Origin: an uncultured virus (IMG/VR IMGVR_UViG_3300020595_000014) | Taxonomy: Duplodnaviria > Heunggongvirae > Uroviricota > Caudoviricetes | Reading direction: 5' to 3' (one strand) | Virus record (IMG/VR): IMGVR_UViG_3300020595_000014 | Length of the DNA stretch: 64,000 bases | Part shown: piece after piece, positions 10,243 through 64,000 of the stretch | Layout of the letters: each line of letters opens with the position of its first letter | Numbering within the stretch: position 1 is the stretch's first letter | Position numbers and translations under genes: made by a program | Notes under the pieces: model-generated | Seen by the model: the letters and a program-made list of their open reading frames with translations, nothing else | Databases searched by the model: none | Told to the model about the DNA's origin: nothing

Positions 10243-10295
10243 ATTATTATTTATGGTTTCGAGTTAATAATTCCATAGCTTAAATAATATATACA

Positions 10296-43457: not shown

Positions 43458-43724
43458 ATGAAAGTAAAAATCAAAGCAGAACTAGACGACGAAGCATTTA
43501 AGACTGGAGACTTTATTCAGGAATTGGGTAAGATTCAAGAGGAGTACTTTGATAAGCTTATGGCTAAGGTCGAGAAAGAGAAATGGGTTGAAGGTATGAC
43601 TAAGATCGAAATTCGCGATTGGCTATTTGATTATTGTTTCAATGGTCGGGGTAATGATGAAGCAGGATTCGAAGATACATTCTCAGAGAGTATCAATAAG
43701 TGTCCGAAATATGAGGTGGAGTAA
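43458..43724 (+). CDS. hypothetical acidic protein
   Basis: ORF in co-oriented run. Confidence 0.5.
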   Translation: MKVKIKAELDDEAFKTGDFIQELGKIQEEYFDKLMAKVEKEKWVEGMTKIEIRDWLFDYCFNGRGNDEAGFEDTFSESINKCPKYEVE

Positions 43725-47961: not shown

Positions 47962-48759
47962 CTACAGTTGATTTATCCAATCAAAGCTCTGTTTTATCTG
48001 CTCTGAGAACTCCTTACCTAAGACGTTATGCCAATCTGGCTTTAACGGCTTGACCACGTTACGGATCTTATGCTCACCGTAAGGCCAACCAAGTTCATGT
48101 TCATCTGTATACTGTTCTACGTTTAGCGGATTGACCTCAAACCTATCCATTTCTAGATAATCCCAGACTGCATTCATTGCTTCGACAGGATTGGCGGTGA
48201 GATCCTCTGCATGGACAAAGTGTAGTTTATCTTTATGTGTTTTTATTGCATCATGCAATCTCTCTACTGCAATACCAAGTGGTGGAGTATTGAGCCATCC
48301 CTGCGACCTCTTCTCAATGGTTGTCCAGTTCTGTGGATTCTGCTTTTCAATACCAACAAATCTTGACGGGTGCTTCATTCTTAGCTTCTCAAAACTAGAA
48401 AGAATGCCTCTTACATCTCTAACTGGCACTAATACTTTAGCATCTGGAAATACTTTATACAATTGATCCAAATGACCAATCCATGATCTGCACTTATCAA
48501 CAACTACTGGTCTATCTGTGTCGCCATCAAATGCGCTTTTAATACCACCTCTAAGGAAATTGTGGTATTGTCTTTCACCATCTAGTGGGTTTTTAAATGT
48601 TTTAAATTCCTCTGTTTCAAAAAAGTCTCTAGCAATATATCCTATTTCATGAACACCAGATGTAGCAGTTGCATGTACCTCAGGGTTTTGTGCTAATAGA
48701 TTTTGAAGAAGAGTAGAGCATGCTCTAGGAAGACCAGATGTGAAATGAACTGTTTTCAT
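47962..48759 (-). CDS. sulfotransferase-family protein
   Basis: SGLPRACSTLLQNLL, VRDVRGILSS motifs; TTGACT-N16-TATAAT upstream. Confidence 0.85.
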   Translation of the reverse strand: MKTVHFTSGLPRACSTLLQNLLAQNPEVHATATSGVHEIGYIARDFFETEEFKTFKNPLDGERQYHNFLRGGIKSAFDGDTDRPVVVDKCRSWIGHLDQLYKVFPDAKVLVPVRDVRGILSSFEKLRMKHPSRFVGIEKQNPQNWTTIEKRSQGWLNTPPLGIAVERLHDAIKTHKDKLHFVHAEDLTANPVEAMNAVWDYLEMDRFEVNPLNVEQYTDEHELGWPYGEHKIRNVVKPLKPDWHNVLGKEFSEQIKQSFDWINQL

Positions 48760-48802: not shown

Positions 48803-49882
48803 TTATGGTATGTTAGGGTAGTTTGCCCAATCTATTACGGTTACTCCAGATTTACCGCCAACTGTTTGACCAGCGCCTAATGTCCAGCCATTGGCTACTG
48901 CGTCATTAGCATAGACTGTGGTTAATCCAGAGTTGTTAAATGCATCACTACCAACGTTTGCTAGTGGCGGCGCTAGATATGCTGTAGTTAAGCCAGAGCA
49001 ATTATAAAAAGCATAAGTCCCAATACTCGTAACACTATTTGGAATCACTAAACTAGTAAAGCCAGAGCAACTATCAAACGCATAATTTCCAATAGTAGTA
49101 ACACTATCTGGAATCACTAAATCACCAGTAAAGCCAGAGCAATCATTAAAAGCATACTGTCCGATAATCGTAACACTATTTGGAATGACTAATGAACCAG
49201 TTAAGCCAGTGCAAAAATCAAAAGCATAACTCCCAATAACCTCTACTGTATTAGGTATACTTAATTCACCCACAACCCCACTTGCCTCAAATGGACCATA
49301 AACGGAGTCGATTGCACCAAGGTTAACAACACTTCCTAAATCTAAAGTAAACTGTGATCCCTGTGTATCGTAAAATATTGGACCATAAATATTCTTACAA
49401 CTATCCAACAAAGTAACACTCTCTATACTACCACAGGCTTCAAACGCACCATACCCATCTGCTGGATCACCGAGGGTCTCCATTTCTATAGTTATATCAG
49501 TGATATTTGTACCATAAAAGGCACCTACGCCAAGGGACAGGGTACTAGGCAGAAATATGCTGCCGGTTATAGGTGTATCAACAAAGGCATAATCCCCTAT
49601 ACTCGTTAAAGTAGAGGGCAGGGGATTAATAGGACCGAGCTCAGTAAGGCTGCTATTATAACCAAAGGCGTAACTACCTATACTTGTGCATGATGTTCCA
49701 ATCTGTAATTGTTTAATGTCACTTTCCTTCTTCCAATCATCAGGTATATCTCCCTGCACTTGACCAATCTCACCATTCGTTGTGCTACTCCAAACAATCG
49801 TAGGTGTTTTAAACTCCTGCTCATCTTGGAGGGTGAGTTCTACTACATTGTTGGTAATTTGTCCTTTGTATGTTTTGCTCAT
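48803..49882 (-). CDS. BspA-type LRR_5 protein
   Basis: LVIPNSVTIIGQYAF repeats. Confidence 0.85.
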   Translation of the reverse strand: MSKTYKGQITNNVVELTLQDEQEFKTPTIVWSSTTNGEIGQVQGDIPDDWKKESDIKQLQIGTSCTSIGSYAFGYNSSLTELGPINPLPSTLTSIGDYAFVDTPITGSIFLPSTLSLGVGAFYGTNITDITIEMETLGDPADGYGAFEACGSIESVTLLDSCKNIYGPIFYDTQGSQFTLDLGSVVNLGAIDSVYGPFEASGVVGELSIPNTVEVIGSYAFDFCTGLTGSLVIPNSVTIIGQYAFNDCSGFTGDLVIPDSVTTIGNYAFDSCSGFTSLVIPNSVTSIGTYAFYNCSGLTTAYLAPPLANVGSDAFNNSGLTTVYANDAVANGWTLGAGQTVGGKSGVTVIDWANYPNIP

Positions 49883-49886
49883 GAGT

Positions 49887-50534
49887 CTATACTAAATCCT
49901 TTATAACTTCTATACCATAAATACCACCAATGTTCTGATTAGTTCCAGCAGTCCATGTACTGTCACTCACTCTAGCATGAATAGTGGCTAAGTTACTTGA
50001 CCCGATAAACACTTCTGTATTTTCATCAATAACTGTTTTAGATATATAACAATTAACATTAGTGAGGTTACTATTTATGCCAAAAGACCAATCTCCTATA
50101 AGCTGAACATTTCTACCTATGGTGAGGTTAGGGCCATATGTACATCCTGCAAAAACAGCAGAATAATCCAAATTATCCCCGATAGTTGTAACACTATCTG
50201 GTATAACTAAGTCACCTGTTATATTAGTTGCAAAATAAAACGCACCGCTTTCAATTGTTGTAACACTGTCTGGAATTACTAATTGGCAGTTGTATCTGTT
50301 GCCACCTAAACTGTTAAAACCGATTTTTGTACAAGATGTACCTAAAACGATTGCTTCACTGTCAGCTCCGTACCCGGCAAACCCACCAGTTGTTGCTTGG
50401 TCTATATCACCAAATATCTGGATAACTTCATTCACCCCAGTATTCTTTGTAATAACAGTAGGTGTGCCAACAGGATCAAGCAAGTTAAGCTCAACTACAT
50501 TATTAGTTACATTGCCTTTAAATAACTTGCTCAT
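49887..50534 (-). CDS. BspA-type LRR_5 protein
   Basis: LVIPDSVTTI repeats. Confidence 0.8.
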   Translation of the reverse strand: MSKLFKGNVTNNVVELNLLDPVGTPTVITKNTGVNEVIQIFGDIDQATTGGFAGYGADSEAIVLGTSCTKIGFNSLGGNRYNCQLVIPDSVTTIESGAFYFATNITGDLVIPDSVTTIGDNLDYSAVFAGCTYGPNLTIGRNVQLIGDWSFGINSNLTNVNCYISKTVIDENTEVFIGSSNLATIHARVSDSTWTAGTNQNIGGIYGIEVIKDLV

Positions 50535-50540
50535 ATTAAA

Positions 50541-51107
50541 TTACCATGTGATTGCCTGTAACTCCACTATAGTAGTTGCGGCAGTGATTTCGTCATTGAT
50601 TGCCTTTTCTCTTGCGAAAGAAGTTTGAATGTGACTTGTGATTGCATCTGCTATTGAAGCAATCAATGTAGCATCAACAGTAATGAATGATCCATCACCG
50701 ATCTTCCAATCAGTAGTGAATGCAGGGTCTGCAACTGCTAGTGAATTTGCTTGATAAATCCTTGCTACTGTAAGTCTATCAGTTCTTACTGGCAAACCAC
50801 CAACATCAATACCTCCGACTTCTACATTGTATCTTTTATCGGCGTAATGATCTCTTGAATGTTTCTTTGCACCATCAATATCTGCGCCAAAGTCTGTGAG
50901 TTGTTGATTGAATCTTTCTGTTTGTTTTTGCTCTCTAAATTCATCTTGTGTCAGTAGAGTACCGTTAACAATAAAGTATGTTTCATCAGAGGCATCAACA
51001 GTAGCTGCATCTGCATCTGAAATTTCGCTATAGTGTGGAGCTTCTGTCGGCTCTACATCTTCTATTCTGCGGATTCGTCCTTGAGGACCTGTGATTGCGT
51101 ATTTCAT
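50541..51107 (-). CDS. DUF4376-like tail-fibre assembly protein
   Basis: RYNVEVGGI..RTDR..WK..DGSF..HIQTSFARE..ELQAITW. Confidence 0.7.
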   Translation of the reverse strand: MKYAITGPQGRIRRIEDVEPTEAPHYSEISDADAATVDASDETYFIVNGTLLTQDEFREQKQTERFNQQLTDFGADIDGAKKHSRDHYADKRYNVEVGGIDVGGLPVRTDRLTVARIYQANSLAVADPAFTTDWKIGDGSFITVDATLIASIADAITSHIQTSFAREKAINDEITAATTIVELQAITW

Positions 51108-51127
51108 TTTTTTGTTTTAGTTAAAAT

Positions 51128-52132
51128 TTATGGTATGTTAGGGTAGTTAGTCCAAGGTAGCACTGTCATACCAGATCCTCCTTGGAATGTGGCACTATAT
51201 TGACCAATGACATCAGGTCCTTCGTATATATTAACAAGTGCAGTTGTGTTCAATAAAGCACCCGTTCCAACCCACGATGCTGCTGGTGTGTTGGTGTAAA
51301 GAGTAGTAATGGAAGAGCAATAACGAAAAGCCTGACTCCCAATACTCGTCACACTATCTGGAATCACTAAATTGCCAGTTAAGGCAGTGCAACCTTTAAA
51401 AGCAAACCCCCCAATACTCGTAATACCATCTGGAATCACTAATTCACCAGTTAAGCCAGAGCAATTATAAAAACCATTACCCCCAATAGTTTCAACACTA
51501 TCTGGAATGACGAGCGAGCCAGTAAGAGAAGAACAATCCGCGAAGGTATAGCTATAGATTGTATTTATATTATTAGAGATAGTTAATGATCCGTTGAAGC
51601 CTGTGCAGTCCCAAAAAGCACCTTCGCCGAGACTTGTAACACTATCGGGGATTACCAAATCACCTGTAAACCCTGGATCAAAAGCAAAGGCATTGTTACC
51701 AATACTAGTAACACTATCTGGAATGACTAAGTCGCCAGTAAAACCACATTCACCCAAAGCATAGTCGCCGATGCTCGTAACATTACTTCCAATAGTTAGC
51801 GAACCGTTAAGGCTACTACCACAGTAATAAAATGCGTAAGATCCGATGTTCGTAACACTATCTGGAATTACTAAATCACCAGTTAATTGATTGCAATAGT
51901 AAAAAGCATAACTCCCAATACTTGTGCAACTTGTTCCAATAGCAAGCCCCTTCATGTCATTGCGAGCATCATAAAACCCACTACCCTGAACAATATCTCC
52001 ATTATGAACTACTTTGATTTCACCATTATTAGTTCCACCAATACCATAGGACAATGTGCCAGCATCTCCATCCAGTAAGTTTAATTCAACTACACTGTTA
52101 GTGACTTCACCTCTGAATGATTTACCTGCCAT
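51128..52132 (-). CDS. BspA-type LRR_5 protein
   Basis: ~9 repeats of TGDLVIPDSVTSIGxxAF. Confidence 0.88.
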   Translation of the reverse strand: MAGKSFRGEVTNSVVELNLLDGDAGTLSYGIGGTNNGEIKVVHNGDIVQGSGFYDARNDMKGLAIGTSCTSIGSYAFYYCNQLTGDLVIPDSVTNIGSYAFYYCGSSLNGSLTIGSNVTSIGDYALGECGFTGDLVIPDSVTSIGNNAFAFDPGFTGDLVIPDSVTSLGEGAFWDCTGFNGSLTISNNINTIYSYTFADCSSLTGSLVIPDSVETIGGNGFYNCSGLTGELVIPDGITSIGGFAFKGCTALTGNLVIPDSVTSIGSQAFRYCSSITTLYTNTPAASWVGTGALLNTTALVNIYEGPDVIGQYSATFQGGSGMTVLPWTNYPNIP

Positions 52133-54778: not shown

Positions 54779-55006
54779 ATGGACAAAGGACTATTAATAC
54801 TATTGTCATTAGCTGTAATACTAACTATAACGATATTACTTGAGATTTTAGGTATCGTTACGCACGCGTACATCCAAGCTACTATGATGATAAGTCTCGG
54901 TTATCATATATGTTATGCTATCTATGCAGTCTGTGAGTGGAGGGGAAGAACACGCATACGCAATGTAAGGAGAGCTAACTTGAGGCCACCTGGTAGAGAT
55001 TTATAA
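54779..55006 (+). CDS. small membrane protein
   Basis: TATAAATA upstream; two TM segments. Confidence 0.5.
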   Translation: MDKGLLILLSLAVILTITILLEILGIVTHAYIQATMMISLGYHICYAIYAVCEWRGRTRIRNVRRANLRPPGRDL

Positions 55007-55165
55007 CTAAGCTTGCTGAGCTAATATAAGACCTACATTAGCGGCACCATATGATAGCCAAGTAATGGCCCATGGCAGATTGCCCTTAAGAAGATAGGAT
55101 GTACCTACCACTATATAGCCTACCATACACACGGCGACCACTATGTTCTCTAGCGTTAATTGCAT
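55007..55165 (-). CDS. small membrane protein, 52 aa (below ORF-track cutoff)
   Basis: MQLTLENIVVAVCMVGYIVVG...; ATG 6 nt after the minus-strand repeat at 55172-55187. Confidence 0.6.
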   Translation of the reverse strand: MQLTLENIVVAVCMVGYIVVGTSYLLKGNLPWAITWLSYGAANVGLILAQQA

Positions 55166-55240
55166 CCCATAATTATATTAGAGTTCCTGTTGATAGCTAG
55201 TATATCTTTTGCCTATACGGGAACACCGGTATAATAATGT

Positions 55241-55582
55241 ATGAGCAAACAAAAGCCAAGCCATATGGATGAGCTGACCTTGCAATTATTTGACGAGGTT
55301 AAGATTAAACCGGACTTATACCCAGGCTATGCTACAGGCGATGCCTCTGTACAGCATAGCTATTTCATCATTAAGAAATACGACGTTGAGTTAGGAGGGC
55401 ATACAGTACCGTTCGTGGATATTCTTAGACACTCAGAGCAAGAAGAGATTGATTTGCACAACCAAGCATGGCAATATGTTATGGCAATGCCGCGGTGGAC
55501 TAAGCCTTTTATACTTTCTTTCCCAGCTGAGAGTGTGCGTCGTGTGCCGACCCTTACCGTCCGGTTGAACAAACTCGACTAG
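55241..55582 (+). CDS. hypothetical protein
   Basis: leaderless after the repeat at 55220. Confidence 0.65.
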   Translation: MSKQKPSHMDELTLQLFDEVKIKPDLYPGYATGDASVQHSYFIIKKYDVELGGHTVPFVDILRHSEQEEIDLHNQAWQYVMAMPRWTKPFILSFPAESVRRVPTLTVRLNKLD

Positions 55583-55586
55583 AACA

Positions 55587-55724
55587 ATGAAGCTCACAAC
55601 AATAATAGCAATAGGCGCTAGTGTAGCAGTTGTCTTGAATGGTATTGGCGCCACAGATCAAATATTCGAGTTCATAGTCAATTTATTACACCTTCACACT
55701 TTATCCCAGATAACGCCGCCATGA
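55587..55724 (+). CDS. small hydrophobic protein, 45 aa
   Basis: fills the gap; ATGA overlap with the next ORF. Confidence 0.45.
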   Translation: MKLTTIIAIGASVAVVLNGIGATDQIFEFIVNLLHLHTLSQITPP

Positions 55725-55930
55725 TATTAAATATACAAGTGGAACCGCATAATAATCACTTTAAATCAGAAGAGGATTGGAGCGCGCCAGTAGTCAACCG
55801 GATTATTCCTAGAGAGAAGAGAACACTAAGGAAGGCATGCGTTACAGCTCTCGGGGTAGTCTTCTATATAACACTCGTAGTAGGCAGCATCTTAGGAGCA
55901 ATAATAACTATAACAAGCAATCGCGATTAA
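55721..55930 (+). CDS. small membrane protein
   Basis: C-terminal TM segment. Confidence 0.5.
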   Translation: MILNIQVEPHNNHFKSEEDWSAPVVNRIIPREKRTLRKACVTALGVVFYITLVVGSILGAIITITSNRD

Positions 55931-55932
55931 TC

Positions 55933-56118
55933 ATGAAGCCTATAGGAGAGTTGACACAACAGAATATATCTGACCGGTTAGAGTGCCTTGAGTGGTACCT
56001 GAAATATTATAAGAAACAGAACACTGAACTAGTGCATGCGTATGAAGAGTCGCAAGTAAAGATGGTTAAGGTTCTAGAGTCAATTGAGATGTATGAGAGC
56101 ATGCAAGAACAAACCTGA
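55933..56118 (+). CDS. hypothetical protein
   Basis: ATG right after the upstream stop. Confidence 0.5.
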   Translation: MKPIGELTQQNISDRLECLEWYLKYYKKQNTELVHAYEESQVKMVKVLESIEMYESMQEQT

Positions 56119-56123
56119 CGATA

Positions 56124-56288
56124 ATGTATACCGTTGAAGTAAAACATGATGGAAAGTGGAAGGAAGTAGACTCCGGAGAGTCATACCGGAATGTTAGGTT
56201 TACGGTAGATCTGTTTGTTGAGGCATTCGATACGGACAGGGTACGCGTGAGGGCACCAGATGGGAGCTATATAGAGCTAGAGAAATAA
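56124..56288 (+). CDS. hypothetical protein, 54 aa
   Basis: MYTVEVKHDGKWKEV...; ends just before the next repeat. Confidence 0.5.
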   Translation: MYTVEVKHDGKWKEVDSGESYRNVRFTVDLFVEAFDTDRVRVRAPDGSYIELEK

Positions 56289-56311
56289 CGGAACACTGAT
56301 ATAATAACAGT

Positions 56312-56461
56312 ATGAAACCAGAAGAAAGAATGCAAGCATGGAAATCAATCAAAGGAGCTAAGCCAACATGGGAGGAATTCAAGCGCTTACTATCAGCTAG
56401 CGAGTACGATGTAGAGAAAGCCTTAAAGAAATGGAAGAAGAAACATCCGTTCCTGAAGTAA
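56312..56461 (+). CDS. hypothetical protein, 49 aa
   Basis: leaderless after the repeat at 56290. Confidence 0.6.
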   Translation: MKPEERMQAWKSIKGAKPTWEEFKRLLSASEYDVEKALKKWKKKHPFLK

Positions 56462-56719
56462 TATCATAAGAAGATATAAGAAAACATATAAGGATAATAT
56501 AAAAAGACACAAAATTCCTGTATAGTTACTATATAACACTATGATAAAGAGACAATAGAGAATCTAAGAGAGAACATAGAAGAGACGGGAACTTCCGGAG
56601 AGAAGAGCTTTTACGAAATAGCTAAATGCAAAGGGAACACGATCGAAATAAGCGAATACAATTGTTCTAGAATCGAAATAGTCTGAGACCAATGAGAGAC
56701 AATCTATCTGCACAGTTTA

Positions 56720-56769
56720 AAGCTATATCTGCCTAGGTGGAGGGCTTTGCTAAGCTATATCTGCCTAGG
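56720..56769. repeat. 18-bp direct repeat x2
   Basis: AAGCTATATCTGCCTAGG at 56720 and 56752. Confidence 0.85.
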
Positions 56770-56907
56770 CGCTGCGGTTGAACTAGATAATATAAACGTG
56801 TGGAGATTATTACCTCGACTATATATCTCCCCGGGGCTCTGAGCTCTGCACCTCGGAATGCTACGCGCTTAGAGAGATGGGAACACTATTATAATAAGTA
56901 ATAGCAT

Positions 56908-57135
56908 ATGAATAAAGGACCATTTGAATCAAAGAAGTTTACAGCCCTGATCTCTGGGATTGTCTTTAATGCTATTTTCGCAGGCCTCTCATTGTACTTC
57001 ATTGCAGGTAATCCAGAGTCTGCTGTATCTATAGTAAACCTTATGACGGTATCATTAGCCTCTGTTAATGGTCTCATCTCTCTATATGCCATCGGCCAAT
57101 CTGCGGTCGACTGGAAGATCAATACACCGAAGTAA
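56908..57135 (+). CDS. small membrane protein (2 TM)
   Basis: after the repeat at 56880. Confidence 0.6.
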   Translation: MNKGPFESKKFTALISGIVFNAIFAGLSLYFIAGNPESAVSIVNLMTVSLASVNGLISLYAIGQSAVDWKINTPK

Positions 57136-57139
57136 CTAC

Positions 57140-57298
57140 ATGAAGAAGAAGAACGCCATTAGGCTCGAGCTATGCCAGCTGATATCAGACGGGCTACTGG
57201 ATAAGGACCTGGTACTGCTAGAGTTAATTTCTAGAACACCTCCTGGTAAGATTAGGGAACTAATCGAGATACTCAGACCATCAGAAGTGGTTGAGTAG
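57140..57298 (+). CDS. hypothetical protein
   Basis: ATG right after the upstream stop. Confidence 0.45.
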   Translation: MKKKNAIRLELCQLISDGLLDKDLVLLELISRTPPGKIRELIEILRPSEVVE

Positions 57299-57525
57299 AG
57301 GGAACTATTCTCATTATACTTTAGTTCCTATACACACAAAAAGGGAACTACTTTATAAAAAAAGAGTTCTCCCCAGACCTATAGTCTCATTGTTAGTCAG
57401 CTTGTCTGTAGGTCATACCCTCCCTACATCTATATTATATCGGTGTTCCTCTTTAGTGTAATTTGTACACTATACATCAAAGCTCCGAAGCCTATTATAA
57501 AAGGAACACTAATATAATAAAGGTG

Positions 57526-57711
57526 ATGAAAGAGATAAAGAGATGGATAGTAGCATACGACGCCGATGGTGAGACAGATATCTGCAGACATATAATGGCT
57601 GAAACGAGAGAGGAAGCAGAGAAGGAGTTAGCTAATCAGGTTAATTTAGAATTCTGTACTAATGTAGAGATGTTCGAAGATACACTCGCTCCTACGTGGC
57701 AGGAACTGTAA
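57526..57711 (+). CDS. cassette mini-gene
   Basis: starts after a repeat, ends in the next (QEL*). Confidence 0.65.
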   Translation: MKEIKRWIVAYDADGETDICRHIMAETREEAEKELANQVNLEFCTNVEMFEDTLAPTWQEL

Positions 57712-57722
57712 TATAATTAGGT

Positions 57723-57884
57723 ATGTTAAAAGTACTACTAGAGATGTTGGATCAAGTTGAAGCAGCTTGGAAGGCTGGCCACCTCACAAGAAGAGAGGCA
57801 CAACGCGAGTGTGTGTGGATTGGTGCATGTATGGATGCTTATGAGCTTGAGCAACAGATCGCTGCGAACCCTCTGAGGGGCTAG
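57723..57884 (+). CDS. cassette mini-gene, 53 aa
   Basis: MLKVLLEMLDQVEAAWKAG...; lies between two repeats. Confidence 0.65.
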   Translation: MLKVLLEMLDQVEAAWKAGHLTRREAQRECVWIGACMDAYELEQQIAANPLRG

Positions 57885-57911
57885 TATAGGAACACTAATA
57901 TAATAAAGGTG

Positions 57912-58121
57912 ATGAAAGATAATAACCATAAAGTCAGTGATGAGGTCCACTATAACATCCCAGTTAAGGTCAGAGAGATTGTCAATGGGCACCTGTTGAT
58001 AAATGAGAGGCTTCAGTGTCAGCACAACAGAGAGATACTAGATGAGATCATTGCTGATCTACAGCAGTATGCTTCTGAGTTACCATCAGTCTCTGATCTA
58101 GAAACCTGTAATGTCCTCTAG
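57912..58121 (+). CDS. cassette mini-gene
   Basis: after the repeat at 57889. Confidence 0.6.
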   Translation: MKDNNHKVSDEVHYNIPVKVREIVNGHLLINERLQCQHNREILDEIIADLQQYASELPSVSDLETCNVL

Positions 58122-58380
58122 TATGAATGTTATTAAAAGAAGAACGAGATGCGCCTTAGATCTAATGAAGGAGGGCGGTCTAACATCTGATGGTGAGTTA
58201 GATACACATAACAACTATATGATGGAAGACCTTAAGGATAAGGTAGATGATCTAGATAACTGGCTCAATGGAACTGATGGTGGGTTTGATCAAGATAACT
58301 CTTTACATATGAACATGTTGGCTGATATTGTCATGTGCTATGATAAGCTTGAAAGTATATGCGAGAGGGTAGTCCAATAG
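58111..58380 (+). CDS. hypothetical acidic protein
   Basis: ORF in co-oriented run. Confidence 0.55.
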   Translation: MSSSMNVIKRRTRCALDLMKEGGLTSDGELDTHNNYMMEDLKDKVDDLDNWLNGTDGGFDQDNSLHMNMLADIVMCYDKLESICERVVQ

Positions 58381-58417
58381 TTGGACTACGAAAAAGTAAC
58401 ACTGATATAATATACAC

Positions 58418-58597
58418 ATGATAGATTACCAACATTACGTAGCTGAGCGGTTAGAGAGTCTAGAGTTAGACCTGAAGTACCATAAGATGAGAAGCACACA
58501 CCTTGCGCGCAAGCTAGAAGAGAGTGAGGACAAGCTATCAGAGATCTTAAAAGAGATTCGCGACCTTAAGGTTAACTATAAACAGCCAGTACAGTAA
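58418..58597 (+). CDS. cassette mini-gene, 59 aa coiled coil
   Basis: after the degenerate repeat GTAAC-N5-TATAAT. Confidence 0.6.
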   Translation: MIDYQHYVAERLESLELDLKYHKMRSTHLARKLEESEDKLSEILKEIRDLKVNYKQPVQ

Positions 58598-58598
58598 C

Positions 58599-58760
58599 AT
58601 GACTAACTACATCACATATACAACAGACGGTAGATACTTCGTTATCGATAATACATCCCTGCAGCAAGACGGTATCCTTGCTCATGCTATTAAGTGCGAG
58701 TGTACGTCGAATTGGGACGCTCAGGAGATCGCAGATAGTCTTAACGGTGAAGTATTATAG
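58599..58760 (+). CDS. mini-gene, 53 aa
   Basis: MTNYITYTTDGRYFVID...; fills the gap. Confidence 0.5.
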   Translation: MTNYITYTTDGRYFVIDNTSLQQDGILAHAIKCECTSNWDAQEIADSLNGEVL

Positions 58761-58786
58761 AAAGGGAACACTTATATAATAATAGT

Positions 58787-58975
58787 ATGAGCAGTTGGAT
58801 TTGGAAATTTGAGCAAGGTGATGAGGTCATTGTCGATGGTGAGCTTCTGTATGTAGAGAAGAAGGCTAAGAAGAAGTGGTACCTACCGCTAGCGCCAGAC
58901 ACCTGGTGGTGCTATAATGGCTACGGCGAGGATCAATTAGTTAAAGAGAGTGACATGACGCATAAGGAACTCTGA
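58787..58975 (+). CDS. cassette mini-gene (SH3-like)
   Basis: ends HKEL* inside the next repeat. Confidence 0.65.
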   Translation: MSSWIWKFEQGDEVIVDGELLYVEKKAKKKWYLPLAPDTWWCYNGYGEDQLVKESDMTHKEL

Positions 58976-58988
58976 TATAATAAAGGTG

Positions 58989-59249
58989 ATGAAGACACAA
59001 ACTATGACACCCACCACGCCTGCTAACATCTACGACTTCAATGAAGAGGTTGTGAGCATTCCTTTAATCAGCCTGACCACACTAGTGAGTGGGCTTAAGC
59101 TGAGTGTTAAGTTCAATGAGGACTTTAAAGGATGTGTAAAGACAGCTCGACATCTACTATCAACTCCTAAGGGCTATAGGACAGAAGACATCCTGCACCA
59201 CCTGGAGACATCACTAGCTGACACTAAGGCACACTATGGCATAGAGTAA
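58989..59249 (+). CDS. cassette mini-gene
   Basis: between repeats. Confidence 0.65.
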   Translation: MKTQTMTPTTPANIYDFNEEVVSIPLISLTTLVSGLKLSVKFNEDFKGCVKTARHLLSTPKGYRTEDILHHLETSLADTKAHYGIE

Positions 59250-59272
59250 GGAACTCTGATATAATTAAGGTG

Positions 59273-59455
59273 ATGAAAAATAAAGATATAAAGAATGGTG
59301 ACTTTGTTCTCTACACGCAAGGAGACAAGAGTGTCATCCTGTACGTAGAGTTCTACAATGAGAGTGACGACGTCTGGTTAGGAACAGACTCTGACGGGGA
59401 AGATTACTTCTTTCAAGCTAGCGATATTGACCCATGTGACCATAAGGAACTCTGA
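59273..59455 (+). CDS. cassette mini-gene (SH3-like, acidic)
   Basis: ends HKEL* inside the next repeat. Confidence 0.65.
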   Translation: MKNKDIKNGDFVLYTQGDKSVILYVEFYNESDDVWLGTDSDGEDYFFQASDIDPCDHKEL

Positions 59456-59467
59456 TATAATAATAGT

Positions 59468-59758
59468 ATGATGAATATAAAACCGACAATTCGCGAGGTA
59501 AAGGTAATCCTTAACGCACTAGGAATCGATAGAGACGCAATCTCACACCATTGGAATGATACAAGAGTTCGGGGAGGGCGTATTAAGTTCTATTCTAGGA
59601 ACAATATTGACAATGTCTTACCGAAACTAAATGATCATTTAGTATCATTGTTCCCAGACTTTAAAGTCGAATCGACTAGTTATGGTAGGAACGTATATAC
59701 AATTCACTTCAAGGAGATGGATGCAACGTTTGACTTCTTCGGAGTCAACCCTTCTTAG
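59468..59758 (+). CDS. cassette mini-gene
   Basis: between repeats. Confidence 0.65.
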   Translation: MMNIKPTIREVKVILNALGIDRDAISHHWNDTRVRGGRIKFYSRNNIDNVLPKLNDHLVSLFPDFKVESTSYGRNVYTIHFKEMDATFDFFGVNPS

Positions 59759-59779
59759 GAACCCCGATATAATAATAGC

Positions 59780-60019
59780 ATGAACAACAACGAGATGAAG
59801 AACATAACACTCTCCCGGATCACGTCCGTTCTAGATACAGTGAGCTGTAAACTAGTACTCCTAGAGGCACTCGATCGCGATCAGAGCGATAGTGGTTACG
59901 GTGATCTTATCGATCAGATAGCTACAATGCGAGCAGGTCTCGCTACTCTTCAAGGAGCTGTCTCACGAGCAGAATCAGTAGTACCATCAACTATTAGCAG
60001 CTCTAGACATCTCGTTTAA
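59780..60019 (+). CDS. cassette mini-gene
   Basis: after the repeat at 59758. Confidence 0.6.
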   Translation: MNNNEMKNITLSRITSVLDTVSCKLVLLEALDRDQSDSGYGDLIDQIATMRAGLATLQGAVSRAESVVPSTISSSRHLV

Positions 60020-60116
60020 ACACTCTCTCGAAGAATACTCTTCGAGCGCTACCGAGGAGTGCTCGTACAAAAAAACGAGCACTCCTTACATAAAGGAACA
60101 CTGATATAATAATAAT

Positions 60117-60338
60117 ATGAACGCAAATAAAAAGCAAGTAAACGTCGAAAGCCGCACCCGTCAACCAAACCTATTCTCGGTTGTACTAGAGCGCGACCCA
60201 TCCACCGGTGACTTCACCGTGGTAGGTCATCAAGCAAAGCGCCTGGTAATGAAGAATCAGTTTAAGGGTGACTGGGTAAAAGTAGCGCCGCGAGCCATCG
60301 CTAAGGCACTCCGCAATAACAAGATCAAAGCTGCATAG
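60117..60338 (+). CDS. cassette mini-gene (basic)
   Basis: after the repeat at 60095. Confidence 0.65.
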   Translation: MNANKKQVNVESRTRQPNLFSVVLERDPSTGDFTVVGHQAKRLVMKNQFKGDWVKVAPRAIAKALRNNKIKAA

Positions 60339-60356
60339 CACCTACGATTTTCATCA

Positions 60357-60383
60357 GTCCCTGGACATGGGCCTAAACTGTCC
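60357..60383 (+). ncRNA. compact H-type pseudoknot motif, copy A
   Basis: GTCC-CT-GGACA-T-GGGC-CTAAAC-TGTCC. Confidence 0.55.
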
Positions 60384-60414
60384 GATCTTTTACAGTTTGA
60401 AGAAGAATGATCTG

Positions 60415-60502
60415 TGGCCTGTGCGCCGAGCGGTCGAAGGCGCCGGACTCATAATCCGGGACGTAAGATACATCGTGGGTTCAAATCCCACCGGGCCGAC
60501 CA
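60415..60502 (+). tRNA. tRNA with CAT anticodon (Met or Ile2) and long variable arm
   Basis: TGGCCTG/CGGGCCG, CCGGA-CTCATAA-TCCGG, 15-nt variable region, GTGGGTTCAAATCCCAC, ACCA. Confidence 0.88.
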
Positions 60503-60537
60503 TTCTTCACAAATAGGAACACAGATATAATAATAGT

Positions 60538-60717
60538 ATGGCCGACAGTATACAACTACAATCTTTAGAAGAGAGCTTAGCTCGAATGTTTGAGAAAGAA
60601 CTCGACAAGCTACATACTATTATAGCTGAGCTTGAGAGCAACATCTCTACTACTATGTCGGAGGTAGAGAAACTTAAAGCAGCAGCTAATCGAGGTAATA
60701 CGCCTTACGATTGGTAA
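60538..60717 (+). CDS. cassette mini-gene, 59 aa coiled coil
   Basis: after the repeat at 60516. Confidence 0.6.
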   Translation: MADSIQLQSLEESLARMFEKELDKLHTIIAELESNISTTMSEVEKLKAAANRGNTPYDW

Positions 60718-60802
60718 CCCTTTTCGATCGAGTGCGTCAAAGAACAACATGTCCTTATCACTACTAAATTAAGACGCCAGGCATAGCCTACGATCATCAC
60801 AT

Positions 60803-60876
60803 TGATCCCCGAGTATAATGTAAACTGGATCGTTAAACAAACTGCTCTAGGACCTTAGCATGTCTTTAAACTGCTA
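60803..60876 (+). ncRNA. two tandem pseudoknot motif copies (B, C)
   Basis: TGATCC-CC-GAGTA..GGATCG..AAAC-TGCTC; AGGAC-CT-TAGCA-T-GTCTT-TAAAC-TGCTA. Confidence 0.55.
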
Positions 60877-60906
60877 CCACTTTCTAAGAACCCCGTCATA
60901 ATAATA

Positions 60907-61032
60907 ATGAGACACGACCAAGATCCAATTGAAGAGATGATGCAATGGCTGCTGATGGGAGTCTGTATAGCGGCAGGGGGGCTAGCGCTAGCAGTATTTG
61001 TATGTATCGTACTACGTGCCATCATTAGTTAA
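60907..61032 (+). CDS. small membrane protein, 41 aa
   Basis: after a degenerate repeat; one TM segment. Confidence 0.5.
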   Translation: MRHDQDPIEEMMQWLLMGVCIAAGGLALAVFVCIVLRAIIS

Positions 61033-61039
61033 TAAAGAT

Positions 61040-61267
61040 ATGAGAAGTAAAAAGAAGACCAATTGGGAGTTCGTTATAACGTTGATGTGTATTGCCGCCC
61101 TAGGCTCTATGATGTGCTACGTAGGTAAGTACATTGATATGCAGGCTCAACGAATCGACTATCTAGAGATCGAGAACCTTAAGCACAGCGAGGCACTACA
61201 CATCCTACTACCTTCAGCCAGAGAGGAGGTTAAGGCTGGCGTTAGCTGGCACGATATGGAACCCTGA
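61040..61267 (+). CDS. membrane-anchored small protein
   Basis: TM segment; ends in the repeat at 61258. Confidence 0.55.
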   Translation: MRSKKKTNWEFVITLMCIAALGSMMCYVGKYIDMQAQRIDYLEIENLKHSEALHILLPSAREEVKAGVSWHDMEP

Positions 61268-61282
61268 TATAATATAGGTACG

Positions 61283-61480
61283 ATGAAGTTAAAAGGACCA
61301 CTAAAGCTGGATAAGATATATGATGTTGATGGTACGGATATGTATGGAGTACTGCTAGAGGATCATGGACTAGAGGAGGTAGTAGATGAGATGAATGTTC
61401 TGATGGATTACATTAGAGAGCTTAGTGGTAGGGTAGAGGAGCTTGAGTTTGCTTATGAGCGTGGAAGAGAGGAACTCTAA
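61283..61480 (+). CDS. cassette mini-gene (acidic)
   Basis: ends EEL* inside a repeat. Confidence 0.65.
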   Translation: MKLKGPLKLDKIYDVDGTDMYGVLLEDHGLEEVVDEMNVLMDYIRELSGRVEELEFAYERGREEL

Positions 61481-61492
61481 TATAATAATAGT

Positions 61493-61576
61493 ATGACAAT
61501 TATTGAATGGAGAGAGATGGTAGATGCAGGTCTTATTCAATTGGATGAGGATGGTAATGAAATAAAGGAACTCTGA
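61493..61576 (+). CDS. cassette mini-gene, 27 aa
   Basis: MTIIEWREMVDAGLIQLDEDGNEIKEL; lies between two repeats. Confidence 0.55.
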   Translation: MTIIEWREMVDAGLIQLDEDGNEIKEL

Positions 61577-61587
61577 TATAATTAGTT

Positions 61588-61842
61588 ATGATGAAAGTAA
61601 AAAATGTTATTGGATATAATGAAGTTGGGTTGGATTATAAATTATGTGAAGAGATTTATGAGAATGGAAGTGGGAAAGATATTGAAGGAAGGTTTTTAGA
61701 TGTTGAGTTTTTGAAGATTATTCTAGAAAGTACTATTGAGTGGGTTGAAGAGAATAGTGAATATTGTTGGTGGAAAGACAAATGTGTAATAATGCTTAAT
61801 AGTCTTGAGAAGTTTGATGATGAGGTGTTAGTAGAGTTTTAG
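61588..61842 (+). CDS. acidic cassette mini-gene (C-depleted)
   Basis: between repeats; similar to 61864. Confidence 0.7.
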   Translation: MMKVKNVIGYNEVGLDYKLCEEIYENGSGKDIEGRFLDVEFLKIILESTIEWVEENSEYCWWKDKCVIMLNSLEKFDDEVLVEF

Positions 61843-61863
61843 GAACTCCAATATAATAATAGT

Positions 61864-62133
61864 ATGATGAAAGTAAAAGGTTATAAGGTAGTTGAGTTTG
61901 GCGATACAAATGTTGATTTTGATGTTTGTAGTTCTTTATATGATATGTGGTCAGGATTAGACTTAATAGGTCGAGTTGTTAAGGTAAGTTTTTGGAAGGA
62001 ACAGATTACAGACTTTATAAAAGATATGAAGGATGATGGAGATTATGATAGTAAGGATGATTGGACTATTAAAGTAGAGAAGGTATTAGAAGAAGTTAAT
62101 AAGTTGGAAGAGGGTTTGTATATTCAATTTTAG
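61864..62133 (+). CDS. acidic cassette mini-gene (C-depleted)
   Basis: between repeats; similar to 61588. Confidence 0.7.
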   Translation: MMKVKGYKVVEFGDTNVDFDVCSSLYDMWSGLDLIGRVVKVSFWKEQITDFIKDMKDDGDYDSKDDWTIKVEKVLEEVNKLEEGLYIQF

Positions 62134-62154
62134 GAACTCTAATATAATATAAGT

Positions 62155-62319
62155 ATGATGAATTATAAAAGTGTTTGTGAAAAATATGGAGATGAAGTTG
62201 GTTTAAAAGTACTAGACTTTATTGAAGAAGGTTGGGGCGAGAATGGAGCTGATGAGTTCAAATTTGATGATGGAAGTGTCTTTAAAGAGGTAGTTGAGGA
62301 ATTTATTAAGGAACTCTAA
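62155..62319 (+). CDS. acidic cassette mini-gene, 54 aa (C-depleted)
   Basis: MMNYKSVCEKYGDEVG...IKEL*. Confidence 0.65.
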   Translation: MMNYKSVCEKYGDEVGLKVLDFIEEGWGENGADEFKFDDGSVFKEVVEEFIKEL

Positions 62320-62331
62320 TATAATAATAGT

Positions 62332-62475
62332 ATGATGAAAGATATATTAGAAGTTGGTAAGAAGTATAGAGGTGAGTTGTTGAGAGTTGATTATGGATAT
62401 GAGATTGATGATTGTGAAGATGATTGTTGGTTTTATATTCTAAAGGGTGGTGAGATTATTAAGGAGGAACTCTAA
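62332..62475 (+). CDS. acidic cassette mini-gene, 47 aa (C-depleted)
   Basis: MMKDILEVGKKYRG...KEEL*. Confidence 0.65.
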   Translation: MMKDILEVGKKYRGELLRVDYGYEIDDCEDDCWFYILKGGEIIKEEL

Positions 62476-62487
62476 TATAATAATAGT

Positions 62488-62697
62488 ATGATGAATGATT
62501 GTTTAGGAAAAGAGCAGGACGAGTTGGTAGCAGCAATTGCCAAGAAGCATATGCATATTAAAACACTTAAGGAACAAAAGTCAGATAGTCTTGATTTTCA
62601 TGATGTGAGTGTTTGGCGGCTTGAAGGCGCTCTTAAAGAGGCACTTCGAACTGGTATTGATATTGGTATTAAGATGACAGTAAATCATTTGAAGTAG
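62488..62697 (+). CDS. DUF6900-like protein
   Basis: IAKKH..TL..KSDSLDFHDVSVW motif. Confidence 0.65.
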   Translation: MMNDCLGKEQDELVAAIAKKHMHIKTLKEQKSDSLDFHDVSVWRLEGALKEALRTGIDIGIKMTVNHLK

Positions 62698-62718
62698 GAA
62701 CTCTAATATAATAATAGT

Positions 62719-63009
62719 ATGATGAATATAACATATAACAAACTAAGCAAGATTCGCGCAACAAGATACTTCAATGATATGGAGAGAGATGATAAGGAAA
62801 CTGCTTTATTATATCTCGGAGAGGAACTTGTCCAGAAGATTAAGAGAATCGATTCATGGATGAGTGATGAGAAGGGATTTGAAGGAACTAAGTTTGATGT
62901 AGATAATAATAACCACTCTAGATTATTCGCTAAGTTAGATATGTTAAATGACGAGTTAATGGATATTATTGAGAAGGCTGGATTAGATCTAGTGGCAGAG
63001 ATTCACTAA
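62719..63009 (+). CDS. cassette mini-gene
   Basis: between repeats; resembles 58111 (DxWxxxxxG.F). Confidence 0.65.
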   Translation: MMNITYNKLSKIRATRYFNDMERDDKETALLYLGEELVQKIKRIDSWMSDEKGFEGTKFDVDNNNHSRLFAKLDMLNDELMDIIEKAGLDLVAEIH

Positions 63010-63035
63010 CAGGAACACCAATATAATTAGTCACG

Positions 63036-63371
63036 ATGAATATACAAGACCTAATCCAAGCACTAGAAGAAATCGCTGAGCAGTCACCTAACGCTGAAGT
63101 TCGATTTGCGAGTCAACCTAGCTATCCATTTGAGTACTCCATTGCAGAAGTAGTCCCATGGGATAAGCATACAATGATCGACAATGAGATTGAAGAGATC
63201 CGACAATCGATTGACGAAAATAATCAAGAGCCTATGTCACATAAAGATATGAAGGCATTGGCTGAGCAGAATTTAGAAGACGAAGGAGTGCTCGAGGATG
63301 TGGTATATCTCGAAGAAGGTACACAGCTAGGCTATCTCCCAGAAGGTCCAAGGCATGCCTTAGGCTGGTAA
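63036..63371 (+). CDS. acidic phage protein
   Basis: AEVRFASQPSYPFEYSI and VYLEEGTQLGYLP motifs. Confidence 0.7.
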   Translation: MNIQDLIQALEEIAEQSPNAEVRFASQPSYPFEYSIAEVVPWDKHTMIDNEIEEIRQSIDENNQEPMSHKDMKALAEQNLEDEGVLEDVVYLEEGTQLGYLPEGPRHALGW

Positions 63372-63385
63372 AGATTTCATCATAA

Positions 63386-63411
63386 CACCTAGGTAAGTGC
63401 CTAAACTGCCT
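63386..63411 (+). ncRNA. compact pseudoknot motif, copy D
   Basis: CAC-CT-AGGTA-A-GTG-CCTAAAC-TGCCT. Confidence 0.55.
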
Positions 63412-63442
63412 ACTATATTAGGAACTCCGATATAATAATAGT

Positions 63443-63760
63443 ATGATGAATAAGAACTATAAAATAATCCACACGATGAAGGTCCTAATCAAGACACAAT
63501 ACAAGGAGTGGTATGGTTGTGAAGACCATATAGGCGATGAAGCCTATGGTCGTTACAAGAACAAAGGAGGCATGGACTATGTCTTAGAGGTCGACGAGCA
63601 TGTGTTTATGTATGATGAAGAGTCTGTTCGCAAGGCCTTCCATGATGTGTATGATGTACCTGGATCGTTCACTAGATGTACTATTGTCGATATCGAGCCC
63701 TGCTATAGAGAGCCAAGAGAGATTAAGCTAGACATTAAGAGTGATGCTCTAGTGCACTAG
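63443..63760 (+). CDS. cassette gene, hypothetical
   Basis: between repeats. Confidence 0.65.
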   Translation: MMNKNYKIIHTMKVLIKTQYKEWYGCEDHIGDEAYGRYKNKGGMDYVLEVDEHVFMYDEESVRKAFHDVYDVPGSFTRCTIVDIEPCYREPREIKLDIKSDALVH

Positions 63761-63780
63761 GAACACTGATATAATAAGTT

Positions 63781-63996
63781 ATGGACAAAAGGATAAACTA
63801 CCCATATGCATATGGGCGCTTGAGCTCTTCATTGAGTGGCTTCGCCCTAATGAAGAAGATGAAGGAGAAGGGCCTCGACCTAAAGAATTGGGACCTAGAA
63901 TGCGCAATCCAGGAGTTGTTGGACCAGGCCCTAGATGACCTGAAGAAAGAAACTCATGATGCAGCTGCAGTAGAGCACGAGAAGTACGGATCATGA
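63781..63996 (+). CDS. cassette mini-gene
   Basis: after the repeat at 63760. Confidence 0.65.
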   Translation: MDKRINYPYAYGRLSSSLSGFALMKKMKEKGLDLKNWDLECAIQELLDQALDDLKKETHDAAAVEHEKYGS

Positions 63997-64000
63997 AGAC

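Follow-up and report, generated by a model that had tools for sequence, protein, structure and literature searches.

Introduction

The hyperplastic regions of T4-type phages contain mini-gene cassettes that are each headed by a promoter (promoter-early-stem-loop or PeSL modules). Here we describe a region of this kind in a 64,000-nucleotide (nt) stretch of DNA from a marine T4-like phage, which we call the window. On its + strand, between positions 61493 and 62475, five consecutive mini-genes for acidic proteins have almost no cytosine in the coding strand; we refer to them as the tract. Like the PeSL modules, the tract belongs to a T4-like phage and consists of small open reading frames (ORFs) that each have an early-type promoter, and recombination between the promoter repeats adds and removes cassettes. 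Unlike in the PeSL modules, the promoter here suggests leaderless messages and a stem-loop part was not seen. We know of no description of a base exclusion in PeSL modules.

Templates that are free of one base are known from the laboratory. In the G-less and C-less cassettes, a promoter is followed by a template without one base and RNA polymerase runs without one of the nucleoside triphosphates. The phage cassettes share the promoter and the base-free template, of which one related locus (L099) offers 1,546 nt. The laboratory cassettes, however, are engineered and non-coding, whereas the phage cassettes are natural, protein-coding, conserved and selected, and the copies in the window keep 3 to 11 Cs. 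A second engineered case is the single-protein-production system, where messages without ACA survive the toxin MazF. There, a message is recoded to escape a sequence-specific attack and the protein is kept. The difference is that this system concerns one triplet, whereas in the phage every C is avoided, ACA not specially, and five amino acids are given up.

Evasion at the level of composition is also known from viruses, with restriction-site avoidance, the EcoP15I sites of T7 in one orientation, CpG depletion against ZAP and the footprints of APOBEC. As in the tract, selection acts on nucleotide content and not on the protein. But these cases involve short motifs or dinucleotides and are genome-wide and partial, whereas the phage excludes one entire base, with hardly an exception, and only in a defined class of genes. 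The GC-skewed zones that form R-loops, such as the immunoglobulin switch regions, RNA II of ColE1 and the mitochondrial conserved sequence block CSB, also have an extreme excess of G over C on the non-template strand past a promoter. In contrast to these, the phage cassettes keep U, have no G-quadruplex motifs (0/60), are translated genes and show the skew as a property of single cassettes. The DNA mimics Ocr, ArdA and Arn are small, acidic and among the early genes, as are the tract proteins, but no sequence similarity to them was found for the tract proteins, and no fold similarity for the one family modelled.

We conclude with high confidence that the tract consists of five autonomous cassettes of the early type that have their own promoters and probably leaderless messages, that the small acidic proteins are under purifying selection, and that the cassettes belong to a class in which selection removes C from the transcript, from the ATG to the stop codon and also in the linking promoters. 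In a passage of one published study, long stretches missing one nucleotide are stated to be absent from most natural DNA and RNA (PMC6526412). In our literature search, natural cytosine-free phage genes were not found described in the full texts searched.

Results

Cytosine is nearly absent from the coding strand of five consecutive genes

The C content was scanned across the window in 200-nt windows and 106 ORFs were called greedily. The scan gave a mean of 18.9% C with a standard deviation of 4.4%. In the tract the values were 2.0-5.0%, and the minimum elsewhere was 9.5%. In total, the tract has 38 Cs in 983 nt (3.9%), next to 26.8% G, 35.8% A and 33.6% T, compared to 20.3% G and 29.2% T in the window, and its GC skew is +0.75. 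An earlier interpretation of the DNA letters, the sequence-only reading, had counted the Cs of the five genes by hand, and all five values were exact on recount. They are 6/84 in the 27-amino-acid (aa) ORF MTIIEWREMVDAGLIQLDEDGNEIKEL (61493..61576), 5/255 in the 84-aa acidic protein that defines family A (61588..61842), 11/270 in its 89-aa paralogue (61864..62133), 8/165 in a 54-aa acidic ORF (62155..62319) and 3/144 in a 47-aa acidic ORF (62332..62475), all on the + strand. The first C is found at nt 5, 136, 39, 58 and 109 of the ORFs in this order, and none of them is C-free throughout. Several of the Cs in the tract belong to the GGAACTC of the promoter repeat, which overlaps the gene ends, as had been noticed before.

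The four larger genes of the tract have the lowest C content among the 106 ORFs (2.0, 2.1, 4.1 and 4.8%), and the next-lowest is the upstream neighbour with 8.6%. The same reading had stated that G remains abundant, which is correct (26.8%), and that neighbouring cassettes have 15-25% C. The latter does not hold for the immediate neighbours, which are intermediate, with 8.6% for the ORF at 61283-61480, 11.9% at 62488-62697 and 11.0% at 62719-63009. The triplet ACA occurs 5 times in the tract, where 16.3 were expected at the rate of the window. Palindromes of 6 bp that contain G and C were counted 4 times in the tract (4.1 per kb) and 833 times in the rest of the window (13.0 per kb).

Selection removes cytosine at the nucleotide level

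For each ORF an expected C content was calculated from its own amino acids and the codon usage of the window. The tract genes had an expectation of 7.7-9.8%, the lowest in the window (mean 17.7%), and the observed content was 2.0-4.8%. Pro, His, Gln, Thr and Ala need a C in every codon, and these residues together account for 3.4% of the five proteins compared to 22.5% elsewhere in the window. Asp and Glu reached 25.7% compared to 12.5% elsewhere, and Lys and Arg 12.2%. The described scarcity of Pro, Ala and His and the richness in Asp and Glu were therefore real. With C removed, the proteins are left with about 15 amino acids. Their acidity does not follow from this removal, because random C-free codons of the tract composition would give more Lys and Arg than Asp and Glu, as calculated by hand.

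Synonymous codons were then analysed for those amino acids that can be encoded either with or without a C. In the tract, 20 of 195 of these codons contained a C where 64.3 were expected (z -7.2). The C-poor genes of two relatives that are introduced below gave 6 of 131 instead of 39.2 (G002, z -7.0) and 8 of 214 instead of 60.7 (G003, z -8.9). Amino acid composition alone therefore does not account for the low C. This test of synonymous C avoidance at a given amino acid composition had been set beforehand. C-poverty was also kept through synonymous turnover in homologues of 42-98% identity. When the family-A gene of the window was compared with its G002 homologue, 16 of the 45 conserved residues differed in their synonymous codon, and only 3 of these 32 codons had a C. 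Selection at the nucleotide level, as suggested by the sequence-only reading, holds strongly for the coding strand, on the evidence of the synonymous codons, the persistence in homologues and the runs without C in relatives, which exceed 1.5 kb.

Two ORFs of the window behave differently from the tract. In the ORF at 43458-43724 the 10.9% C is all explained by the amino acids (10.8% expected, z 0.2). The upstream neighbour of the tract, a 65-aa cassette (61283..61480, + strand), has 17 Cs compared to 22.6 expected from its amino acids (z -1.6) and is not a full member of the class.

Relatives of the phage reach zero cytosine

Metagenome contigs were scanned with the family-A alignment, which yielded 80 loci (loci are given L numbers throughout). 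Since the loci were fetched around a single family and are mutually related, their counts and proportions are not independent and are not those of the phage population. Two relatives were of particular use: the IMG/VR contig G002, with the loci L001 and L012, and G003, a complete relative of 184.5 kb (L058-L060). The window is a mild case of a phenomenon that is found in many marine phage relatives. The family-A homologue had at most 4.0% C in 62 of the 80 loci and zero C in 17, and 6.3-16% C in 18. In G002, a family-A homologue with 53% identity belongs to a run of three cassettes whose C content is 1.5%. G003 has only one C-poor tract, where four consecutive acidic mini-genes have 0.0, 6.0, 1.4 and 0.0% C, and the remaining cassettes of this genome (about 60) have 10-33%.

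The most extreme locus is L099, in which 13 consecutive cassettes each have less than 5% C. Absolutely C-free runs extend over 1,546 nt in L099, 1,317 nt in L105, 1,087 nt in L102 and 1,052 nt in L110, whereas the longest G-free runs in these four loci are 17-27 nt. When 542 distinct cassette ORFs were compared, the C content was bimodal, with 113 ORFs below 1%, a trough at 5-10% and the main mode at 14-18%. The low-C class was defined as cassettes with less than 5% C and comprised 172 cassettes with 370 Cs in 36,492 nt; 73 of the 172 have no C at all. Low-C members were found in about 18 cassette families, a rough count by single-linkage clustering, since the reduced amino acid alphabet made the clustering lump families. 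Between the same flanking genes, the number of C-less cassettes varied from 0 to 13 across the loci. Most promoter-bearing loci of other IMG/VR contigs had no C-poor tract within 2 kb, although it may be elsewhere in these contigs.

The residual Cs of the 172 low-C cassettes showed no gradient of position along the ORFs, and isolated Cs are tolerated at the gene ends. ACA is a common context among them (54/315). For 60 sampled cassettes of each kind, the predicted folding energy was -0.083 kcal/mol per nt for the C-less and -0.210 kcal/mol per nt for the normal cassettes. No G-quadruplex motif was found in any of the 60 C-less or the 60 normal cassettes.

A second array in G002, which encodes proteins with VWDEV repeats, has 5.5% C and 36% G. 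It comprises ten cassettes at L001 1681-3900 (66.5-68.7 kb of G002) for tryptophan-rich, internally repetitive proteins (VWDEVWDKV..., period 4), and every member ends with RNSDII* in the next promoter. A paralogue at L001 5481-5813 has a more ordinary make-up with Gln, His, Ala, Thr and Pro. Also in G002, the C-less cassette at L001 10321-10521 (4 Cs in 201 nt) has a paralogue at 14573-14818 with 31 Cs in 246 nt. At 24 of the 27 conserved residues the two use identical C-free codons, and the extra Cs lie at diverged positions and at the ends. A further low-C stretch of G002 at 4.4-5.4 kb turned out to be unrelated, as it is the antisense of a Pro/Thr-repeat gene. This gene lies on the minus strand of L012 (2414-5368) and encodes a 984-aa protein with Pro/Thr/Ser repeats of the TPSITP type, so that the opposite strand looks C-poor.

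The unit of exclusion is the transcribed cassette

The cassettes share a promoter of the form GGAAC-N-TATAAT, which is followed by the ATG; the start site, the promoter role and the early timing are read from the sequence. At the first promoter of a C-less row, which stands between a normal cassette and a C-less one (n=18), the variable part had 1.83 C, compared to 2.03 C between two normal cassettes (n=132). In the 10 nt upstream of the promoter, the values were 1.61 and 1.55 C, respectively. Since these promoters have a normal C content, the exclusion starts at the -10 box and the inferred start site, the ATG. Promoters between two C-less cassettes had only 0.70 C, and 26 of 60 were without any C, with variants such as GGAAATTTAATATAAT. 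The promoter following the last C-less cassette was near normal again (1.65 C, n=20). Continuity across adjoining C-less cassettes seems to matter.

The borders of C-poor tracts are step-like and coincide with cassette boundaries. In L142, a cassette of 21% C sits between C-less ones, and in L124, L137 and L138 the family-A gene has 10-16% C and the cassettes immediately downstream have 0-2%. Hairpins between cassettes do carry Cs (G003 3362-3400 and L001 around 10250-10275). These observations point to the transcribed cassette as the unit, and not to the region.

The family-A proteins were also placed in a tree of 51 sequences. Ten rows with more than 5% C form one clade (support 100/99), which is sister to a C-less form, and an eleventh such form with 6% C (L079) falls into the clade of the window. 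Within the relaxed clade C rises from 7 to 10 and 16%. The fraction of synonymous C codons rises from 0.01 to 0.24, 0.29 and 0.47, and Pro, His, Gln, Thr and Ala together rise from 0.3 to 3.8, 6.4 and 7.9%. Family A exists in both states, whichever direction the loss or gain ran.

Each cassette has its own promoter

The repeat GGAACWCYRATATAAT matches the window at 36 sites, compared to 0.6 expected by chance, and 34 of these sites are on the + strand. From about 55 kb to the end of the window, small ORFs of the + strand follow each other, each with this repeat ahead. In the tract, the repeat of ORF 61493 is GGAACTCTAATATAAT at 61471..61486, and its CTC TAA is the last codon and stop of the upstream ORF. 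The repeats of the following cassettes lie at 61567..61582 (for ORF 61588), 61842..61857 (61864), 62133..62148 (62155) and 62310..62325 (62332), all on the + strand. The tract is bordered downstream by the promoter at 62466..62481 (+), which belongs to the cassette at 62488-62697. Three of the five tract genes end inside the next promoter, which supplies both their final sense codon and their stop as CTC TAA or CTC TGA. Several cassette ORFs end with EL* for this reason, among them the 54-aa ORF with KEL* and the 47-aa ORF with EEL*.

The gap between TATAAT and ATG is exactly 6 nt at 16 of 35 sites in the window and at 52 of 72 sites in G003. In the cassettes at 55000-64000, a Shine-Dalgarno sequence was not present at the usual distance (e.g. 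61471-61495). A transcript that starts 7 nt past the -10 box would begin with the first base of the ATG. The messages are therefore probably leaderless, and leaderless messages would probably occur in the cassettes on a large scale.

When the promoters of the cassettes were pooled, position 9 was a G in 58% of the normal cassettes, which gives the extended -10 box TGATATAAT. In the C-less cassettes it was a G in only 25% and an A in 64%, which is not explained by the avoidance of C. The difference may reflect another promoter strength or class, or relatedness.

Contigs from public runs join position 61596 to 62158 and position 61841 to 62132, with one or two whole cassettes deleted between promoter repeats. 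The cassette content therefore varies within the natural population. The order of the cassettes differs in P0003 and P0014, and in the P0003 variant contig the 47-aa ORF directly follows family A. In P0003-P0005, P0013 and P0014, the public gene calls run through a TAG or TAA between cassettes, shown as Q, and thereby join two mini-genes into one. A wrong genetic code probably underlies these calls, and not a true fusion.

The tract proteins are real and conserved

Stop codons contain no C and are therefore frequent in the tract composition (0.107 per codon). The chance of an open frame is 7e-5 for 84 codons and 4e-5 for 89 codons. Among 22 distinct C-less family-A genes, the ratio of nonsynonymous to synonymous changes (dN/dS) was about 0.22 at a median dS of 0.27, and 116 of 1,777 synonymous differences involved a C codon. 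The tract genes are real and under purifying selection. In the protein collection, the 84-aa protein has homologues with 69-99% identity and the 89-aa paralogue has ten with 75-79%. The similarity that had been noticed between these two was confirmed; they are 25% identical, have invariant positions in common and align as one family. Cassettes homologous to the 27-aa ORF (MTIIEWRELVDAGLI...) are present in L099 and L092, so this short ORF is a conserved gene, and a C-poor cassette in L077 (GELLRVDFGF...) is related to the 47-aa ORF.

An AlphaFold model of family A from 12 sequences was confident and had a predicted local distance difference test score (pLDDT) of 90.7 and a predicted template modelling score (pTM) of 0.80, with the order beta-alpha-beta-alpha-alpha-beta. 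Foldseek found no match to the model at E <= 0.001; the best had E 0.26 in the PDB and E 0.53 in BFVD, and DMP12 came at rank 12 with E 2.0. VIA gave nothing above background, its best hit being part of an unrelated exopolyphosphatase (Z 5.7). At E <= 0.01, no Pfam family was found for the four window proteins scanned (the 27-aa ORF was left out) and no PHROGs family for all five. A set of 20 further C-less proteins had five weak sub-threshold matches only (E 0.002-0.01), to unrelated families or families of unknown function, and the ESM Atlas gave no usable match. From their small size, the early-type promoters and the variable gene content, we guess that the proteins may form a changing set of factors for host takeover or counter-defence.

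The phage is common in marine samples

The phage carrying the tract is common. At least half of the sampled words of the stretch were present in 16 of the 24 public runs listed, and among the runs listed 20 holders came from 12 studies, mostly labelled marine metagenome. Contigs from RNA libraries span the tract; the contigs alone are silent on transcription, its level and the 5' ends. The window encodes T4-type baseplate and clamp-loader genes, GroEL and four tRNAs. G003 has a full T4-like core with the major head protein, portal, sheath, DNA polymerase, UvsX/UvsY, a gp32-like protein and the primase-helicase.

Against 50,697 phage records, the tract had no match with blastn and the 84-aa protein none with tblastn, and a megablast search with 20 kb of the window returned a tRNA match only. 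The record nearest to the window, G001 (25.9 kb), is without the tract region. Comparisons of the GroEL and baseplate proteins yielded no useful host and no close cultured relative. In G002, a 300-aa sigma-70-type factor is encoded at L001 12993-13895, and its closest relatives are RpoD proteins of Verrucomicrobiota (72-76% in the best segment). By this resemblance, the factor is a hint to the host or to a promoter class directed by the phage. On the minus strand of the window, BspA-type leucine-rich-repeat proteins are encoded among tail-fibre-like genes (48803-52132, 28475-30439 and 31646-32374), beside a protein with an FGE-sulfatase domain (32383-34230) and a sulfotransferase (47962-48759).

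Discussion

The exclusion of C follows the transcription unit. This fits synthesis without cytidine triphosphate (CTP) or the escape from an attack directed at C, both proposed in the sequence-only reading and still the best class of explanation. The near-absolute purge argues for a cost of each single C, and a stop or stall at each C fits better than properties that accumulate over the message. What is left as the cause is a cost on every cytidine of the transcript or, equally well, on every template G or every C in the displaced strand. Within this class, we tentatively favour the possibility that the messages are made without CTP and would hence be insensitive to a shortage of CTP or to chain terminators such as 3'-deoxy-3',4'-didehydro-CTP (ddhCTP). 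On a template strand without G, RNA polymerase would make messages without CTP, and neither a shortage of CTP nor a C analogue that terminates chains, such as the ddhCTP made by a viperin-type enzyme, would halt their synthesis. A polymerase stopped at a C would also occupy the promoter of the next cassette, and we propose that the interior promoters were purged because a halted polymerase would block the following cassette. The window copies with 3-11 Cs each would be a leaky version of what reaches zero C in the relatives.

Several points weigh against synthesis without CTP. In the window phage all five ORFs have internal Cs and their messages are not CTP-free, and in three of the five genes two Cs stand in the last sense codon, inside the next promoter. 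If all C-containing genes were blocked in transcription, C-less accessory genes would be of use only through products that remove the block, and thirteen different proteins of this kind seem too many for one task. A viperin or a CTP-lowering activity in the host is hypothetical and has to be presumed; we found no paper in the literature on the escape of a phage from viperin by composition. All readings that are coupled to transcription, be it the RNA as it is made, the RNA as it is attacked, the template or the displaced strand, predict the same pattern. The family-A tree, finally, was midpoint-rooted, and the relaxed clade could be a stage of gain.

An attack on the cytidines of the RNA, by endoribonucleases that require C or by an RNA cytidine deaminase, of the host or as part of the shut-off by the phage, is in our view unlikely as the cause, although it predicts the same transcript-aligned pattern and near-absolute purge. 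Most toxins of the MazF, Kid and ChpB type as well as MqsR require C, the loss of all C would shield a message from many recognition sites at once, and the C-less genes form an island of small early genes whose content varies, as in an arms race. But a cut in the promoter between two cistrons leaves both ORFs whole, which does not predict the purge of the interior promoters, and selection on each C would be weak if only certain motifs of 3-7 nt count. A-rich unstructured messages would in addition be good targets for A-specific toxins. ACA is not avoided among the residual Cs (54/315), and five are left in the tract, which speaks against the ACA-directed MazF version that had been suggested earlier. 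More doubtful again is a constraint on the transcribed DNA, in which a template without G or a displaced strand without C has no sites for lesions or cuts that block genes. Candidate attacks are the ADP-ribosylation of bases in single-stranded DNA, the excision of modified guanine, single-strand cytosine deaminases and dC-specific single-strand nucleases. The pattern begins at the inferred start site and tracks the transcribed unit, as expected also from the RNA readings. The Que pathway leads to 7-deazaguanine bases, which some phages put into their DNA, and G003 encodes QueF, a QueE-like protein, GTP cyclohydrolase I and QueC (L058 5007-5921, L059 6347-7123 and 8741-9352, L060 16791-17519). 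Judged from these genes, modified DNA or tRNA is possible in G003, which also carries ThyX, a GMP reductase/IMPDH-like protein, PhoH and several glycosyltransferases. However, no DNA transglycosylase was among the 23 proteins scanned, and the Que genes were looked for in G003 only. The template of other early cassettes behind these promoters has a normal G content, and under a genome-wide attack the sparing of 1-2 kb would help only if the products stop the attack. T is not enriched as a footprint of deamination requires (33.6 compared to 29.2%), while G rises from 20.3 to 26.8%.

Properties that accumulate over the RNA are improbable as the main cause; here, the messages would be invisible to Rho, or the lack of G:C pairs would keep them free for leaderless translation, or both. 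Rho needs C-rich, G-poor RNA, of which the tract with its skew of +0.75 is the inverse, the C-less cassettes are predicted to fold more weakly (-0.083 compared to -0.210 kcal/mol per nt), and the tolerance of isolated Cs at gene ends would fit as well. Yet 5-8% C would suffice for this, whereas 73 of the 172 cassettes have zero and runs exceed 1.5 kb; for leaderless initiation only the first 20-30 nt should count. Moreover, monocistronic translated messages of 150-400 nt are generally poor Rho targets, and a host Rho is presumed. We regard it as very improbable that restriction sites are avoided and that the proteins are DNA mimics like Ocr or Arn, as the sequence-only reading had it. The tract is indeed poorer in GC-containing 6-bp palindromes (4.1 compared to 13.0 per kb) and its proteins are acidic (25.7% Asp and Glu). 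But the 833 sites elsewhere in the window leave the genome cleavable, and freeing 1 kb of sites protects nothing because the rest has 13 per kb. A strand-specific constraint aligned with transcription is not predicted, and neither a Pfam or PHROG match nor a fold match to any DNA mimic was found (Foldseek E 0.26 and VIA Z 5.7 at best). Least probable of all, and close to negligible, is the absence of nucleotide selection, with amino acid composition, regional mutation skew, amplified C-free repeats or foreign origin as the cause. The amino acids alone do bring the expected C down to 7.7-9.8%, and the VWDEV array of G002 is internally repetitive, but the synonymous depletion (z -7.2, -7.0 and -8.9) and the clade of family A that regains C stand against it. 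A regional mutation skew was ruled out, since the borders are step-like, a normal cassette lies among C-less ones and both kinds share their promoters. A deamination footprint was rejected, since T is not raised as needed and G rises most. Amplified repeats were excluded by the lack of tandem or internal repeats in the window tract, and a foreign origin is unlikely given that promoters native to the phage head the cassettes. Two further candidates were discarded: in a purine-rich RNA that forms R-loops U would go too, yet it stays at 24-34%, and selection for G-quadruplexes is at odds with 0 motifs in 60 C-less cassettes.

Returning to synthesis without CTP, a natural class of three-base genes is possible, although we hold this view only tentatively. 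It would be an exchangeable arsenal of small proteins whose messages are without cytidine, and their expression alone would go on while CTP is missing or poisoned, either through a host defence with a chain-terminating C analogue or a CTP drain or through the arrest of host transcription by the phage itself. The base composition would then be a code for regulation and immune evasion that sets apart one expression class, at the price of proteins with only about 15 amino acids. As material, the cassettes provide natural folded proteins that do without Pro, His, Gln, Thr and Ala, and natural templates on which transcription should need no CTP. It is easy to scan for the signal as stretches of more than 300 nt without C, and its distribution among viruses can be mapped in this way. 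If true, the phages would have a new viral means to protect or time chosen genes by leaving one nucleotide out of the message. This would predict an activity of the host or the phage on CTP or cytidines during the infection of abundant marine bacteria, and composition alone would mark more than a dozen small proteins as candidates for host takeover or counter-defence.

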